Origin: Paramecium tetraurelia
Lineage: Eukaryota
Assembly (NCBI GenBank): GCA_000165425.1
Contig: CT867989.1
Location: 186,001 to 250,000 of the forward strand
Direction: 5' to 3'
Length of the DNA stretch: 64,000 nucleotides
The first letter of the stretch is position 1. Each line of letters begins with the position of its first letter. A program made the position numbers and the translations under genes. The notes beneath the pieces are model-generated. The model had not been told where the DNA came from. It was given only the letters and a program-made list of their open reading frames with translations, and did not search any database. Positions 41,723 to 61,700 of this stretch are shown here, in pieces.

Positions 41723-42097
41723 TCATGCAATAATTTTCTCTAAGTTCTCAATTTCGATGTCGATGCCAATCAAATTGGTTTTGAGACAATGCCTTGCTGA
41801 ACAGTCGTTAATGGCTCTGGCACCTTAGTGAGTTCGCATGCAATAATTGAACTAGCATAATGATTGAAATGGCTATACATCATCCAATGCGTGTTCAGTT
41901 CCCTTGTAGGCTTTGGAATCTTAGGCCTTTTTAACATTCTTTCTGAAGTCATTTGTGCACTTGGCTATATGTTATTGACAAGTCGAATCCTCCCTACATT
42001 ATTTGATTTCATTATAGCAGAACGCCTGAACGCAATTGCCGCCTGCGTAGACTGTACAGATGAATGTGACAACAAAGATAATGACCAAAAGTCTCAT
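41723..42097 (-). CDS. Small secreted cysteine-rich protein A, paralog of B
   Basis: Signal MRLLVIIFVVTFICTVYA; CVQAFCYNEIKQCREDSTCQQHIAKC; probable 27-nt intron 41852-41878. Confidence 0.75.
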
Positions 42098-42228
42098 ATT
42101 TAAAATTAATTAAATAATATTCTAGAGAATTAGAATGATCATTAATAATTATTTGTTTTAACTTCTCTCCCGACTCTGATTATTACTTATTAAAATGATA
42201 CGTATGTCATTGATATCATTAATAATAA

Positions 42229-43472
42229 ATGCTTCCAAAGTTTATTAAGCTAAGAGCAAGCTTCTCCCTCTTGAACTTCAATTTCATATCCAACCTCCCA
42301 CCTGAAGTAGAAGAATTGCGATCTCATGTCACTAAATTTGCTGCAGAGGAAGTAGCACCGTTAGCCGACAAGGCAGATCAAGAAGGCAAGTTTCCACCAC
42401 ACCTATGGAGAAAGATGGGAGATCTGGGATTATTGGGAGCCACAGTTGATCGTAATACTTAATTGAGATTATTTAGCTGCTTACGGTGGATCAGGATTAT
42501 CCTATTCTGCTCATTGTATGATATTGGAAGAAATCAGCAGAGCCTCTGGTGGTATTGGATTGAGCTACTCTGCTCATAGTGCCTTGAATGTTGCTCAACT
42601 CCAAAGACATGGAAATGAAGCTTAGAAAAAGAAATACCTACCCAAATTGTGTTCAGGAGAGTGGGTTGGAGCTTTGGCTATGAGTGAACCCAATGCTGGA
42701 TCAGATGTTGTATCTATGAAGACAACAGCCAAAAAAGTTGGTGATAAATATATTCTCAATGGAAGTAAGATGTGGATCACTAATGGACCTGTTGCAGATG
42801 TCATTGTGGTTTATGCCAAAACAGAACCTGAAAAGAAACAACATGGAATTACTGCTTTTATTGTAGAAGCAGGAATGAAAGGATTTTCAAGAGGCAAGAA
42901 ATTAGATAAAATTGGAATGAAATGTTCTGATACAGCACCCATCTATTTTGACAACGTAGAAGTCCCTGCAGAAAATGTACTTGGAGAAGTCAATAAAGGA
43001 GTTTATGTTTTGATGAGTGGATTAGATTATGAGAGATTAGTTTTGGCTGCTGGACCTGTTGGGTTGATGCAAGCTGCTTTTGATATCTCAAGAGAATACT
43101 GCAACACTAGATAGTAGTTTGGAAAACCAATTGGACAATTCTAATTGATGTAAGGCAAATTGGCTGAGATGTACACTACTTTATAAGCCAGCAGAGCCAT
43201 GCTTTATTCAGTTTCTCGTGCTGTCGATTCAGGAAACATAACTAATACAGTAATATACATTTATCTATTCCTAGGATTGTGCAGCATTGATTTATTATAC
43301 TTCTGTGAATGCCACTTAAGTTGGATTGGAAGCTATCCAATGTCTAGGTGGAAATGGATATACCTAAGAATATCCAGTTGGAAGAATTATGAATGATGCC
43401 AAACTCTATGAAATAGGAGCAGGAACAACTGAAATTAGAAAGTGGTTGATTGGTAGACAATTGACTTAATGA
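42229..43472 (+). CDS. IVD: Isovaleryl-CoA dehydrogenase, mitochondrial
   Basis: [53 protein letters not shown]. Confidence 0.92.
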
Positions 43473-44007
43473 TCTTTAAATATAACATTGTTAAGAATTT
43501 ATATATTATAAAATTTATTAATTTAATCTACTAGGTGCATATTAATATTAAGATATATCCTAAATAATAGTCCTCATTTAGATTCAAATTCTATTTAAAT
43601 AGAGATTTCCATGTTAACTGTGTCACGATATATTTATTAATATACTAAAAAGGTAATAGTTAAAGATATAATGATTTATACATATTTAAAAGACCTTATA
43701 GGAATCGATTTCATAATTAGTAAAAAGAAATATTAATTTATAATTAAATTAATATTTATTACCAATGGTTTTAATTAATTTTTAGTGTATCTAATCCGAA
43801 TAAAATAATAAAATCTTAAGGAAAATACTAGTTGTATGTAAATGAAATTTCAAAAAGGAATATTCTTAATTAACACCTTTATGTAATTTTTAAGGAATGA
43901 AATTTAAAAAAGTCGCAAAAACAAAGGTATTTTTAATAAATTATTTAAATAATACTCAGATAACCAAGAAAATCATTTAATAGTAATAAATTATAGACAT
44001 ATTTTAA

Positions 44008-45021
44008 TCATACAGCCTTTATTCTGTCTTCCTCTAATTGTTAGTTACTTCCATTGCTCTAATTTGTATCTACTTATAAAGATATTTTGAGTACCATCTT
44101 TACTGGAACCACCATTTTATTCATTGTTGTTATCGGAACTTCTTGTTCCGTTGCTCATTGTATTTTGATTGGTCTTGTTGAACTTTTGAATGGAGTCTAA
44201 AATAATATTTGAGGTCTTAAACTTTGTGATTAATCATTAGGGGAAGTGCTGGTTAATCGAAATAACAGTTGGCACAATAAATCACTATAGGTTTGACGTT
44301 TGCTCTTTATCATACTAAATTCCAGAAATAAAGAGTGGTAGGACTCAAGTAGGGTGGATTGAGTGTTTTGGAACTAATAGCCATACAAAATGATACCTAT
44401 TCGATTTGTTTACTAATGAAATTGGATTCTGTGTTGATGTTGTGTATTTCCTATTTCAAGGTTGTGTACTTTTCGAACAGTTCCTCTTAGATTTGCTTTA
44501 CTATTTGGTTTTTCAGTTTGATGGACTTTTCCTTTTTGGGCTTGACTCCTCCGTTTCTCCTGGGGATATTGACTAACAGGTTCCTGAGATTAATGTGATT
44601 TGATTACTCCATATTCTTCCTAAAATAATAATGACTGAATTCATTTTGGTTGTTAACATTGCGAATTTTCTTGAATCCATACATATTTAATTATCTTATA
44701 AATGAACTGAAATTGTGATGTTTAAAATGGGTTGGGAGTACATCATTACTCAATTTGGTTTGGTCTTTAACAACAAATGCATTGCCTTTATCAGTGAATC
44801 CAATAATATCTTCATTCTCGGGATTCTAAAAGTTATTAAAAATCAATTGAATATATTTAATAATTCGAGAATTTAATTCCTAAAATCATCAAAAATTTAG
44901 ATGATCAATTTAGGAATATTCGTAGATGTATAAATTGTTGTAATACCATTACGATATTGTAGGTTTTGAGTAAAAAGTTTGGCACCCCTTTTTTCATACT
45001 TTTTGCTTTCTTCTAAGACAT
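44008..45021 (-). CDS. Heat shock factor (HSF-type DNA-binding domain protein)
   Basis: [65 protein letters not shown]..IPRR, then a heptad region; one 121-nt intron plus about four tiny introns. Confidence 0.9.
44826..44946 (-). other. Unusually long (121 nt) first intron of the HSF gene with hairpin potential
   Basis: GTATTA...TTTTAG; its removal joins helix 1 to the rest of the HSF domain; ATTCCTAAA/TTTAGGAAT and ATCATC/GATGAT inverted repeats. Confidence 0.8.
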
Positions 45022-45449
45022 TCCAAAGAGTTCCTAATATATATTTTGCAAATTAAAAAAATTATTAAAATATCTGATTATCTATGCGCCTTTTGCTCAT
45101 ATTAATATACAATAATAAAACAATAAGTTAAATTTGTCAAAAAGAGAACATAATATTCATGTTTTATCACTATTCTGACTAAAGTGAATATCTGTTAATA
45201 AATGATTTCTAGATATTCAAATTTCCCCAGAAATGAATCAAGAAGTAAGAAAAACGCACCGGAAATCTATTTAAACGATCAAAAATACCAATAAATGACC
45301 ATAAGTCCTAATTTTTATATAATCTAACCAATTGCATAAACAAAATATTACGATTTATTATATTGATCAATTGGAACGGTTCTAATTTCATAGAATGATA
45401 CAAAAATATAAAAAATAACAATTATCATAATACCACTCTTTCTAATAAA

Positions 45450-47350
45450 ATTCATTCATTCTATTTTCAGTTGTATCAAAGAATGAATAGTAGTTAAGTA
45501 AATTTAATCAGAGCTTGCTTTTTTGTAAATGTGTTTTCAACCTAGATTCATTTAGAAATTGGTGTTATTAAAAATGCTATTATGGGATTCGAATTTGATT
45601 TATCTATAATTATATATAGCAATTAGATTTTGTTCCATTAATAAAGACACTCTCTTCATGATTTTATTTTACTCAATCTCTAAGTATTCTATGATAACAA
45701 TTGAAAAATTGATATTCTATAAACCATAGCATTGTGTGGTTATACAATACTTACAATACTTGGCTGTCTAACACTATTAATTAAGCTATCATAAAATAAA
45801 TTGTTTATTATGTTATTGATGAGAACTGTTTCTAGTGTAATATCGATATGGATAATGGAACGATATCAAAATATATTGATTATAATATTGCCTTTGCCAA
45901 TATTTTAGTAGGGATTTCATGAACAGAGAGATATAAAATATTATCAAATTAAATTTGCACTTTATTAAAATCTCTCTAATTCATAACTTTTTTTAGAAAG
46001 TGGTAAATATAATTAGAAAATTCTAAACCTTAGCTTCTTATTGTTGTTAGGATTGTTTCTTTTCTAAATATTTAATTCTAAAATTTAAGCGGATTAAAGT
46101 CATCTCTTGAATATTTTATAAAAGATTGATCTTTAAATAGATTGATTTCTAGTTTGAAAGTGCTTTCAAGGTAATGTCTAAATATTTTCCAAAAATAATA
46201 TCGAATAATCAATATTTTCTTGGTAGGAATTATATGCCATGAGTATAGAATGAGAAATTGAAGCTTCTATTATGCTCACAATATTACTATACTTTTTTAT
46301 TCACTCTACATTCTGAGTATTAAGTGATATCATTCAAGAATAATGATAAGGCCAATATACTTTGATTAAATTTTAGCATTGAGTATTGCTTCTTATTGAT
46401 GATATTATTAAAGAAGGCTGTTTATAGTTTTCAATTTTCAATAAACTACTAATTCAACATTCTTTTTTGATTTTTTTAGCATTTTAAATCAACTTCCTAA
46501 ATGATCCACCTTTCTCTGTTGAAGTTTCCTAATTATTATTCAAATGAATGAATCAACCAAAGAAACTATTATCTTTTGATAACAACCAATTTAATCTTCT
46601 GTTACTATAGATTCATGAAGCGATTTTCAATTTCTATTTTTATAGAATAAGGAGATTCCTTAGAATTAGGAGCAGAGTTCTAAGAATAGAAGTATATTGA
46701 TCTCTTGTTTAATAGAAAAGTTAGGAATAAAGTATTCAGATGATTTTTAGGAATGATGGTATTCTTAATTTTATATGTATACTTTTTATTATGGTATATG
46801 TATTGGTTAATCTATCTTGATTACATTATTAGTGATCATTGTCTAATCGTCTCTTATTTGGATTCAATAATTATATTCACTTTTTTTATTCATTATTGTA
46901 TCATTTGTTCATGGACCAATTATTCGTATATTCAATATATTTGATATTGGAATCATTGAAACTCTCTTTATGCTTCTTATTTGTCTTTCAATGAGGAATG
47001 ATTATTATTACAATATTCAACAATAAATTGTAAAACCATTCAATTTAAATTACTTTAATTTTCAATTTAACAAGGGCAAATAGTGAGTTCATATATCACA
47101 GTTTTCACTCTAAAAAGTCTTGAGTGCATTTTTTATTCTAGATTATATTTTTAATGAATTTAATGAAATTATCAATTTAAGTCTCAAAAGAGATAGTTAT
47201 TGTGATTAGCATCCAATTGTAATCCTCTAGAAATAATTGACACAAATCAAATGCGTAATAATCTTGAATGTATTCTATCTCTAAATCTATGTTTCTTAGG
47301 GAATAATCATAATTTTTATATTATACAAAATACATATTATTGTAAATATT
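45450..47350 (+). pseudogene. Possible decayed multi-TM protein gene
   Basis: Long interval without an intact gene; hydrophobic coding-like fragments (e.g. 46753-46944) interrupted by TGA. Confidence 0.3.
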
Positions 47351-58796: not shown

Positions 58797-61700
58797 TCAT
58801 TTATGATTCATCGCTTCTTGATAGACCTCATAAAATAAAGAAGATTTGTCCTTCAATAATTCACTTGGTGATCCAGACTCCTTTAATTCTCCTTTGCTCA
58901 TAACAAAAATCCTATTCAAATATCACTTAAAATTGTACTTATCACAATGCAAAATAGTATTAATTCTATGAGCTATGGTAATCACTGTATGATCCTTGAA
59001 TAATCTCTAGATGGCCTATTATATTTTTTGTTCAGTCTCTATATCAATATTGGCTGTGGCTTCATCAACCAAGACTATTTTGCTTTTCTTCAATATGGCT
59101 CTTGCAATGCATATCAATTGTTTCTCTCCTGCACTCAAATTATCTCCTCCCTCATTTATAGAAGTATTTAATCCATTCCTATCATTGATCAATTATAATA
59201 GACAACATTCTTCGATTACCTTCATTATTTCTTCATCACTGCAAGTTTCCAAGGGATCTAAGTTTTACCTAATAGTTCCAGTAAAAATCACAGGATCTTA
59301 AAGTATGGTGGTGATTGATGACCTCAATCTTTAAATTTATACTTTTGAGATGTCTACATCATCTATTTCTATACGCCCTTATAAAGCTTCTACTATTCTC
59401 AAGATACTAAGTGTTATTGATGATTTCCCAGCTCCAGTTCTTCCTACAATACCTATCTTCTCTTAAGAATCAATAGAAAAACTTAAGTTTCTAAGAACTA
59501 ACGGCAGATTGCTTCTGTAATTTACTGAATAATTAATGAATTTAATTCTTCCCTGATTGGGCCATGATTATTCTACGGTTTTAACCTCTGCCAGATTCTC
59601 TGATTCGATCTTTGTATACTCTAAGCATCTCTCAAAGGATATCATATTATTTTCTAATAAGCTTAAAGAATCAACAGTTTATTGCACATTTCTATCCAAA
59701 CTAGCAGCAAATGTTAATATCAGTCCTGCAAACGAAGGATTACTGGTGTATAAAATGCAATAACCAATTGCAAAAGTATTTACTATTAGACTGGCAAACC
59801 CGAGAACTTATAGAAACCATGAACTAGCTGCAATTGAATAATTGACTATCTATTTATTATAATCTAATTTCTAGGCAAATTCCTTGATCACAAAATCGGA
59901 TTGAGAGTAAGCTCTTATAGTTGTCAACCCCATTAAAGATTAAGTAAAATAACTCAGAATTGGGCTTCGACTTATAAGTTCTAATCGTTGAAGTTCTCTA
60001 CTGGCTTTCATGTATAATCGTTGGATTTTCAAGCATATATAAAAGAAAATTATTAAGGGGAAAATGAGCAAGTATGTGCTAACATAGATACTTAATAAAT
60101 TGTTGCTCAGAATTTAGCTAATCTTAGTTGAAAATTAAGCAATATTAATGTGGATTTCAACGTCAAGAGAATTAATATCTTTAGTTAATCTATTCATGAT
60201 TCTGCCTAGTGGAACTCTTTCAAAGAATTTACATTGAGGTGCAAACATTAAACAATTGATCATATCATTGTGTATTTGGGAAGAGGACTTTATACTTTGT
60301 GATACAATCATTGCTGCTCTTATGTAGGCAAACATAGACTGTATAAATCCTAGGAATAGAAATACCCAAAAGTAAGTGATTTCGCTATAATGATCTGACA
60401 ATGAAGCATATCGACTAGTCCATTCTGTTACCCATAAATTAGCCATAATCTAACTGAGTATCCAAATTATCAGAACAATAAATAGGATAGTTTAAAAGAT
60501 TAAATTCTTTTTGTATTGCAGATACTTAATATATACTTCTTGATCGATTTCTCCCTTCTTCCTTTCTTCGATAGTCATCAAATCTGATTTAGTTTTATCC
60601 ATATCTTTAATTTACTCTTAATTCTAATCAATTTCCTTCTCGTCACCCAACTATACATCCTTACCTTGCGTGATATTTTAGTTCTCTTACTATTGGATAT
60701 CAAATTCAAATTTCTTTTCGATTTCTTGGAATATTAAGTTATTCTGCATCTTCTAATAATCACCTTATTCTATGATTTCTCCCTTCTACATCAAATAAAT
60801 GTAGTCTGTGTATTTACAGTAGTTTAATGCATGAGTAATCAGAATTCTAGTTTTTCCCTTCAAGAAATTGATGAAACACTCCTTCAATATGAAATTGCCA
60901 ACTTGAGCATCTACAGCACTCAAAGGATCATCCAATAAGAAGATTTCTGCTTTACTATAAATGGCTCTTGCTAAACTTATTCTAGCCTTTTGTCCTCCAG
61001 ATAAGTTGATTCCTTTCTCTCCAATCATAGTTTGATCTCCATGAATTAAGATCTCTAAATCCAGACTGAGACATGAATATTTAATGGCTTGTTCGTATAA
61101 TTGCTCATCATAAGCCTTACCAAACAATATGTTCTCTTGAACAGTGGCATTTTAAATCCATGGCTTCTATCCTACATAAGCAATAGGACTAGATCTATAG
61201 ACCTTTGGTTTCTCACCATTGATCTTGTAGATCATCTCTCCTAAAATGCTTTAAATCAATGAGGACTTCCCAGATCCGACATCTCCTATAATCGATACAA
61301 ACTTCCCCTTCTCCACTTTGATATTTATATTCTTCAAGATTTGTTAATCTTCAATACACTCCTTTCTCCAGAAAAAGTTGCCCTGAGTTATTTCTAAAGC
61401 AGAGGATGCAGCTGCAGCCTTGTTCTTACAATATAAGTCATTCATTAACTCATGACTATCTAAAAAGTTTTCTATTCTTTTTAAAGATACTTTGGTTTCT
61501 AAAAGGTCATTCAATGAAATTGGCAATAATTAAAGACTGGCAGCTAAAATAGAGAGCAATCCAATTATGGGAAAGGTCTTACTTGGGATTAATTGATTCC
61601 CCAAGAGTACATACAATCCAAAAGTAAAACTTAAAATCATTTAAGGGGATAGCCAACCCATGAACACATTTATCGAAAAATACTTCAATCTATCCTTTAT

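Follow-up and report, generated by a model that had tools for sequence, protein, structure and literature searches.

A 121-nt intron with a stable predicted hairpin interrupts the DNA-binding domain of a Paramecium tetraurelia heat shock factor gene

The gene described here lies on the reverse strand of a 64,000-nucleotide stretch of Paramecium tetraurelia DNA, referred to below as the window, in whose positions all coordinates are given (Table 1). The window is AT-rich (GC 0.23-0.36), and the ciliate code applies. The coding sequence (45021..44008, minus strand) specifies 264 aa once five introns are removed, and the spliced translation ends in ...EEDRIKAV*. Its match to the Pfam family HSF_DNA-bind (PF00447, E 4.7e-22) identifies the product as an HSF-type transcription factor. 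Solved HSF DNA-binding domains match an orthologue model, P0126, with E ~1e-16, and a public macronuclear protein of Paramecium tetraurelia (P0005) is 100% identical to the product over the shared part. The tetraurelia ohnologue pair carries the names GSPATT00028064001 and GSPATT00014133001. In two other HSFs, exon 1 aligns without a gap with the beginning of the HSF domain, the Pfam match in exon 2 begins at profile position 12, and joining the two exons gives an ungapped match to other HSFs. Because exon 1 aligns to the domain start and exon 2 enters the profile at position 12, the split falls at the end of a helix that we take to be the first of the HSF domain. This agrees with the initial annotation, which had placed the interruption after helix 1.

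Table 1. Positions of the gene, its introns and the elements within intron 1 (a dot denotes a motif without strand assignment)
Feature	Position	Strand	Evidence
HSF gene transcript, RNA-contig cover	44004..45038	-	contig pieces 44004-44825 and 44947-45038
Exon 1, coding part; start of HSF DNA-binding domain	44947..45021	-	alignment to other HSFs
Intron 1; 121 nt, GT..AG, GC 0.19, length 3n+1	44826..44946	-	skipped in RNA contigs, kept in DNA run
Central hairpin of intron 1, intron positions 30-71	44876..44917	-	inverted repeat and folding
HSE-like two-unit motif GAATATTC, 5' arm of extended stem	44914..44921	.	motif scan
HSE-like two-unit motif TTCnnGAA, just 3' of hairpin on gene strand	44864..44871	.	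motif scan
Only internal AG, intron positions 66-67; cryptic 3' splice site in hairpin 3' arm	44880..44881	-	unpaired probability 0.00 (predicted)
Palindromic core GAATTAAATTC (gene strand)	44869..44879	-	sequence; (E/Q)LNS and EFNS peptides in relatives
Conserved core of intron 1, about intron positions 57-100	44847..44890	-	intron-derived peptides
Intron 2; 24 nt	44584..44607	-	removed in RNA contigs
Predicted intron 3; 23 nt, GC 0.30	44374..44396	-	needed for full-length frame; present in RNA contigs of 3/3 runs
Intron 4; 26 nt	44197..44222	-	removed in RNA contigs
Intron 5; 25 nt	44070..44094	-	removed in X17 and X19 contigs; X18 contig ends before intron 5

Contigs from three RNA-type sequencing runs and one DNA run (X3) were compared with the window over 42000-46500. 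All three RNA-type runs, which come from three different studies, contain one contig each that joins 44825 to 44947 and thereby skips exactly 121 nt, with 72-92 letters on the shorter side of the joint. The skipped segment has the ends CT..AC on the plus strand, that is GT..AG on the gene strand, where it reads GTATTA...TTTTAG. One of these runs (X18) is on record as RNA; the other two (X17 and X19) were assigned to RNA by guess, and each of them also lacks three further introns. In the DNA run the 121-nt segment is covered, and neither the joint across intron 1 nor deletions at the other introns are present. The exon-intron boundaries, ATG/GTATTA and TTTTAG/AAT (the slash marks the joint), share 1 letter and have no TA on each side. 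An IES at 44826-44946, which the initial annotation had wished to see excluded, and an assembly artefact are ruled out by the presence of the segment in the DNA run together with these boundaries. Since the segment is kept in DNA and exactly skipped in RNA contigs, it is a genuine U2-type GT..AG spliceosomal intron that is precisely removed, and the GT..AG intron first proposed from the letters of the window has the right ends. Of the 20 sequencing runs containing the stretch, 16 carry 0.94 of its words.

Removal of intron 1 is constitutive as far as the assembled RNA shows; joints were counted as evidence and contig gaps inside the intron were not, and assembled contigs can hide minority forms retaining it. 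Read-through from exon 1 adds 13 residues and then reaches TGA, in agreement with the earlier prediction that retention meets an in-frame stop at the 14th codon. A candidate branch site, UAAUAAC, can be read from the sequence 7-13 nt upstream of the 3' AG. The intron is about five times the usual Paramecium size. P. tetraurelia introns are reported to have a mean length of 25.1 bp, with 99.9% of them within 20-35 bp (Saudemont et al., PMC5663052), and about 98% are given as 20-30 nt in another study (Arnaiz et al. 2017, PMC5485702). On one reading of the columns of a table in the latter source, 720 of the 94,711 annotated v2 introns exceed 40 nt (PMC5485702). The same source describes a handful of larger Paramecium introns of about 80 nt that contain snoRNAs (PMC5485702, citing Chen et al. 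2009), and states that introns longer than 45 nt were filtered out of the v1 annotation and that the RNA-based intron caller had a maximum of 100 nt (PMC5485702).

The remaining introns are short, as the initial annotation had noted. The RNA contigs remove 24, 26 and 25 nt in the HSF gene (introns 2, 4 and 5), all of them GT..AG on the gene strand. A 25-nt intron of the neighbouring acyl-CoA dehydrogenase gene is likewise removed in RNA contigs. The gap totals of the HSF contigs, 75 (or 50) nt, correspond to the 24-, 26- and 25-nt introns only and leave the 23-nt intron 3 unaccounted for. Orthologue models read KQ(I/V)EQFQNTQ across the site of this intron, and its retention gives a predicted product of 188 aa ending in FWNLV*, versus 264 aa for the full-length protein; the contigs can hide a form that is spliced here. 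If splicing regulates this HSF, the 23-nt intron is a better candidate than intron 1.

The inner hairpin of intron 1 that had been noticed at the outset was confirmed. Its inverted repeat has 16-nt arms that are 88% complementary with 10 nt between them, and its predicted energy is -13.4 kcal/mol at 37 C and -17.0 kcal/mol at 27 C. An extended stem takes in intron positions 26-78 (44869-44921 on the plus strand). When the 64 kb was sampled in 42-nt windows on both strands with a step of 7, only 18 of 18,274 windows folded as well, and all 18 had a GC content of at least 0.33, versus 0.21 for the hairpin. The whole intron has an MFE of -17.8 (z -2.72), which 1 of 200 shuffles equalled, and among 1,768 genomic 121-nt windows of matched GC, 7% fold equally well. 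The whole-intron fold is moderately unusual, and its MFE is weak evidence of structure. A weaker outer pairing of CAATT-TATA with TATA-AATTG, which had also been proposed, did not hold up: taken alone it is predicted at +1.5 kcal/mol at 27 C and +2.95 (about +3) kcal/mol at 37 C, with a pair probability of at most 0.025 at 18-42 C. The proposed full fold leaving 9+18=27 nt unpaired rests on this outer helix, and because the helix is thermodynamically unfavourable, a 27-nt effective length is not a predicted state. The single-stranded path left in the intron is about 37 nt with the MFE helices (manual count) and about 68 nt with the central hairpin alone.

Conservation was read indirectly, from intron-derived peptides in public gene models instead of orthologous DNA. 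Ten close models from tetraurelia, octaurelia, pentaurelia, primaurelia and sonneborni were compared, and none of them contains the exon 1-exon 2 joint of the RNA contigs. In five, translation begins at an ATG within intron 1 and reads MILGIKFSNYQIYS(I/F)DFNN(F/L)Q before continuing into NP...; three use the internal AG as acceptor, joining ...NIVM to ELNSRII(K/N/I)YI...Q and then to NPEN...; the other two start further downstream. The uniformity of Paramecium introns has led annotation pipelines to set an upper limit on intron length, and the HSF-family models examined are consequently wrong at the N-terminus. All nine Paramecium models scanned match the Pfam HSF profile from position 5-10 only, and the control HSF matches from position 1. 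The segment MILGIKFSNYQIYS (14 codons) is identical in all five models that carry it, and ELNSRII (7 codons) in all three; both match the window's own frames. The coding parts of the same models are 82-96% identical to the HSF protein of the window, so that the proteins differ by 4-18%. The 3' tail of the intron varies among the models through substitutions and 1-nt indels. These indels switch which intron frame is in phase with exon 2, and the tail is therefore not coding; a conserved coding extension in the 3' half of the intron is ruled out, as the in-phase frame differs between copies. Judged from these peptides, the intron core appears nearly invariant in ten homologous aurelia genes.

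Traces of the core appear in more distant relatives. In an older paralogue pair, whose coding identity is 46-52%, five models have (E/Q)LNSGKL(H/Q)Y... at a distance of 23 codons upstream of exon 2. A model from P. bursaria, at 54% identity, has EFNSC, here 19 codons upstream of exon 2. A core AATT(A/T)AATTC within a long intron at the same site thus appears, from the peptides, to occur throughout the Paramecium genus. A second related contig in the DNA run, covering about 44864-45067, has at least 5 substitutions and one 1-nt deletion in intron positions 1-52; 3 of the 5 listed substitutions fall in the 9-nt loop and none of those listed falls in the 5' strand of the stem. In the adjoining 50 nt of exon 1 this copy has at least 7 substitutions, five of them at third codon positions. 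A protein search aimed at short RNA-assembly fragments returned 4 proteins (45-55% identity), in which the exon 1-exon 2 junction was not found, and a 28-nt piece of the core had no exact match in metagenome contigs or prokaryote genome contigs.

Splice signals are few within intron 1. AG occurs at positions 66 and 120 only, and the internal one is predicted to have an unpaired probability of 0.00 at 18-42 C, both in the isolated intron and in pre-mRNA context. GU occurs once, as the donor; one GU or fewer was found in 0.7% of 20,000 composition-preserving shuffles (P=0.007). We tentatively propose, at slightly below an even chance, that the hairpin serves as a fixed structural aid, concealing the cryptic acceptor and making the oversized intron more compact. 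The very stable 15-bp hairpin with its 9-nt loop would fold the middle of the intron away, and burial of the only internal AG would direct splicing to the distal AG. With this AG buried and no internal GU, a spliceosome tuned to 20-35-nt introns would see one donor and one accessible acceptor. The hairpin would also shorten the path between the 5' splice site and the branch region, acting as a fixed aid rather than as a thermometer. Several observations count against this proposal. It has no need of the conserved stretch of about 25 nt past the hairpin (positions 72-96), and neither of the two remaining path lengths given above falls within the normal intron size. In the second copy in the DNA run, a change of A49 to G appears to create an AG within the exposed loop, and this speaks against a strong selective pressure to avoid every internal AG. 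In the comparison of copies the stems are seen to be invariant, which is not specific for pairing.

The initial annotation had regarded the AU-rich fold as an RNA thermometer, through which temperature would set intron 1 retention or splice-site choice and hence HSF output. The host gene is indeed an HSF, retention does lead to an early TGA, and there are precedents in yeast APE2 (PMC9198270) and plant HSFA2 (PMC8483784). One weak AU helix of 8 bp close to the 3' end, at intron positions 84-114, loses stability over the physiological range, from -3.4 kcal/mol at 27 C to -0.4 kcal/mol at 45 C, and in the isolated intron the accessibility of the 5' splice site increases on warming (0.05 at 27 C, 0.42 at 42 C). 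In pre-mRNA context, however, this accessibility does not vary with temperature over 18-42 C (0.07-0.2). For the main hairpin a folded state is predicted at every physiological temperature: its mean pair probability is about 0.9 over 10-50 C in the isolated intron and 0.88-0.94 at 18-42 C in a 299-nt pre-mRNA context, and even at 50 C and 60 C it keeps an MFE of -8.7 and -5.4 kcal/mol, respectively. Of the properties expected of a thermosensor, occlusion of a splicing signal is predicted, as the internal AG remains paired at 18-42 C; melting in the physiological range fails in silico for the main hairpin, and only the short 3' helix of 8 bp becomes weaker from 27 to 45 C. A 27-nt state would require an outer helix that is predicted to be unfavourable, and the RNA contigs kept from three studies, of unspecified culture conditions, are all spliced at intron 1. 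Folding of the intron across temperatures, the check suggested with the thermometer proposal, thus leaves the hairpin folded from 10 to 50 C and beyond with no physiological melting predicted, and a physiological thermometer is unsupported in silico. We consider such a device very unlikely, and a temperature effect on intron 1 splicing is unsupported by the modelling. The internal AG might instead be a regulated alternative 3' splice site, use of which would keep 54 nt and insert 18 extra residues after helix 1, or shift the frame in some copies. The sequence around it, TTTTAG/GAATT, is conserved, the loop UCUAAAU could be a branch site, and the 54-nt extension, open in frame 1 of the window, keeps the reading frame there as well as in five models (P0126, P0003, P0004, P0010 and P0131). 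It would be out of frame in five others (P0001, P0002, P0123, P0124 and P0127), where a different intron frame is in phase with exon 2, and with the in-phase frame differing between copies no coding constraint is visible on the extension. Its joint occurs in none of the RNA contigs, and the AG is predicted to be fully paired. The public models in its favour stem from intron-length-capped pipelines (PMC5485702), and because of this cap they are not evidence that the AG is used. Regulated use of this site seems improbable to us. A small stable snoRNA-like RNA hosted by intron 1 would have a parallel in the handful of ~80-nt Paramecium introns reported to contain snoRNAs (Arnaiz et al. 2017, PMC5485702). 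The core is conserved as a functional RNA would be, and one UGAUGA at intron position 56 resembles a C box; it seems, from the peptides, to be absent from the older paralogues and P. bursaria. The D box CUGA is absent from the whole intron, the three ACA triplets (positions 6, 9 and 18) all lie 5' of the hairpin, and an Rfam search admitting E values up to 10 gave no gene-strand match within the intron; the single overlapping match is antisense, with 17 bits against a threshold of 65. With no D box, no ACA after the hairpin and no gene-strand Rfam match, a box C/D or H/ACA snoRNA host is unlikely, and we hold the snoRNA reading as a whole to be very improbable.

Intron 1 could also be a functionless long intron that is tolerated because it is spliced well, the similarity between copies arising from gene conversion or short divergence times. 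The annotated introns above 40 nt (PMC5485702) demonstrate that long introns exist, and the GC-matched windows that fold as well as the whole intron are compatible with this view. It has to contend with a core that is invariant where the proteins differ, with a 3' tail that does vary, with the long intron and core motif that the peptides place at the same position in 46-54% identical paralogues and P. bursaria, and with the depletion of internal GU; we give it a low probability. The main rival of the structural-aid proposal is a DNA-level element, because conservation runs about 25 nt past the hairpin. The core would then be regulatory in cis, for instance as an autoregulatory site bound by HSF just downstream of the promoter; the intron would be long to house it, and the hairpin would be a by-product of palindromic binding sites. 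Both arms of the extended stem are HSE-like palindromes (GAATATTC in one, GGAATTAAATTC then TTCTCGAA in the other), so the inverted repeat could be a feature of the DNA. The two-unit motifs GAAnnTTC and TTCnnGAA both lie in or beside the hairpin arms, and they occur together in 0.7% of the 121-nt windows of the 64 kb, a count that includes windows overlapping intron 1. A three-unit match with 1 mismatch lies at 44909, the most deeply conserved piece of the intron is palindromic (GAATT(A/T)AATTC, with 2 occurrences in the window versus 0.3 expected), and of the perfect three-unit HSE matches, of which the 64 kb has only 3, one is in exon 2 of the HSF gene, at 44663. This exon-2 match, however, encodes the conserved GFKKIR motif and might be coincidental. 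A 1026-aa ORF contains the second GAATTTAATTC, at 59538, which was regarded as a chance occurrence. An HSE consists of at least three contiguous alternating nGAAn units with canonical spacing; no contiguous perfect three-unit HSE is found in intron 1, and the GAA-5 nt-TTC spacing of the deep core differs from the canonical one. GAAnnTTC is not enriched in the window (26 versus 31.8 expected), and the peptide EFNSCIK suggests that P. bursaria has not conserved TTCnnGAA. Although the inner stem GATCATC/GATGATT does not resemble an HSE, it is unchanged in the second copy, and the motif test was post hoc. On balance, we regard the DNA-level element as rather unlikely.

The proposed structural aid can be compared with several known systems. 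In yeast APE2, a hairpin controls the choice of 3' splice site and has been called an 'RNA thermosensor' (Meyer et al. 2011, as cited in PMC9198270). As described for APE2-type introns (PMC9198270), an intronic hairpin would hide an AG and shorten the effective distance, directing splicing to a distal 3' splice site, here as a prediction. Unlike in APE2, the Paramecium hairpin is predicted to be far too stable to melt physiologically, and no temperature-dependent isoform was seen in the contigs. The host also differs in having 25-nt introns, and the problem is one of excess total length, not only of the distance from branch to AG. In long yeast introns, stems reportedly bring the 5' splice site and the branch point together (Goguel and Rosbash 1993; Rogic et al. 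2008). Like these, intron 1 would have its effective length cut by a stable internal helix in a host whose spliceosome finds it long; unlike them, it keeps an unpaired path of ~37-68 nt that is still above the normal Paramecium size, and that length is limiting in Paramecium is an assumption. With the snoRNA-hosting introns of about 80 nt (PMC5485702), intron 1 shares being oversized and conserved in a genome in which 99.9% of introns measure 20-35 bp. It differs from them in its lack of a D box, H/ACA arrangement or Rfam match, and with 121 nt it exceeds the 100-nt pipeline cap. In plants, HSFA2 and other HSFs undergo heat-dependent splicing of an intron of the DNA-binding domain (PMC8483784). 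The likeness to HSFA2 (PMC8483784) lies in the type of gene, the location of the intron inside the DNA-binding domain and the premature stop that follows mis-splicing. In contrast to HSFA2, intron 1 is spliced in all three RNA assemblies, and the intron retained in Paramecium is the 23-nt one downstream of the oligomerisation region. Intron 1 lies at the end of helix 1, which is presumably not the position of the plant HSF intron, and on this assumption the two are not homologous introns. A literature search on Paramecium heat shock factor introns gave no paper on this HSF gene among the matches listed, and one on Paramecium intron stem-loops gave nothing relevant among the matches listed.

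A broader and quite speculative reading, which we think unlikely, treats the oversized intron as a regulatory module of ancient origin in the HSF family of Paramecium. In such a module a fixed hairpin and a conserved palindromic HSE-like core would let HSF or a stress factor feed back on its own transcription or splice-site choice, alongside the poorly spliced, truncating 23-nt intron. If this were true, HSF output in a ciliate with tiny introns would be set largely after transcription begins. This gene for a stress transcription factor also provides a candidate case of regulated intron retention, at another intron than the one originally flagged. With its one donor, one exposed acceptor and one buried cryptic acceptor, the last two as predicted, the conserved 121-nt intron is a compact natural test case of how a tiny-intron spliceosome handles a long intron, and of whether RNA structure makes its splicing possible.

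The junction between exons 1 and 2 of the HSF gene, which spans the 121-nt intron 1 and is present in RNA contigs of all three RNA-type runs (X18, on record as RNA; X17 and X19, RNA by guess), was absent from all 10 close public protein models of the family (P0005, P0001-P0004, P0123-P0127). Five of these models start inside intron 1, 3 carry 18 residues inserted through the internal AG of this intron, and 2 are truncated. In P0005, the public model of the HSF gene itself, the start is MYGFKK, a 24-nt intron is kept, and the C-terminus is wrong. The junction was likely missed because annotation pipelines cap intron length (PMC5485702).

The perfect HSE match in exon 2 of the HSF gene encodes GFKKIR, a conserved motif, and may be a chance product of the codons for this motif.

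Sequence features within the HSF gene (window coordinates)
Feature	Position	Strand	GC	Remark
23-nt GT..AG intron	44374-44396	minus	0.30	
Three-unit HSE match, GAAnnTTCnnGAA	44663-44675			Exon 2; one of only three perfect matches in 64 kb

The Paramecium tetraurelia genome has been described as more than 80% coding. Upstream of the HSF gene, no notable RNA contig was observed over approximately 1.4 kb (45040-46500) in the three RNA-type runs, which is long for such a genome, the absence of contigs being no proof of silence. Within this AT-rich, RNA-silent DNA, contigs of the DNA run X3 were joined across 354 nt (45415-45770), and contigs of X3 and X17 were joined across 315 nt (45796-46112), the short sides of these joints comprising only 22-27 letters. 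A related copy could account for both joints, as could polymorphic or repeated sequence. The adjoining acyl-CoA dehydrogenase gene (42404-43494) has a closely related second copy, which is found in DNA and is expressed; contig pairs from RNA runs over 43012-43181 showed 10 letter differences.

The full 264-aa HSF frame requires removal of the 23-nt intron, matching the orthologue models (KQIEQ|FQNTQ). This intron was retained in the RNA contig kept from each of the three RNA-type runs, a contig-level result compatible with a spliced minority, and four other introns were spliced out of the same contigs. As predicted from the sequence, retention would yield a product of 188 aa that includes the DNA-binding and coiled-coil parts and ends with FWNLV*.
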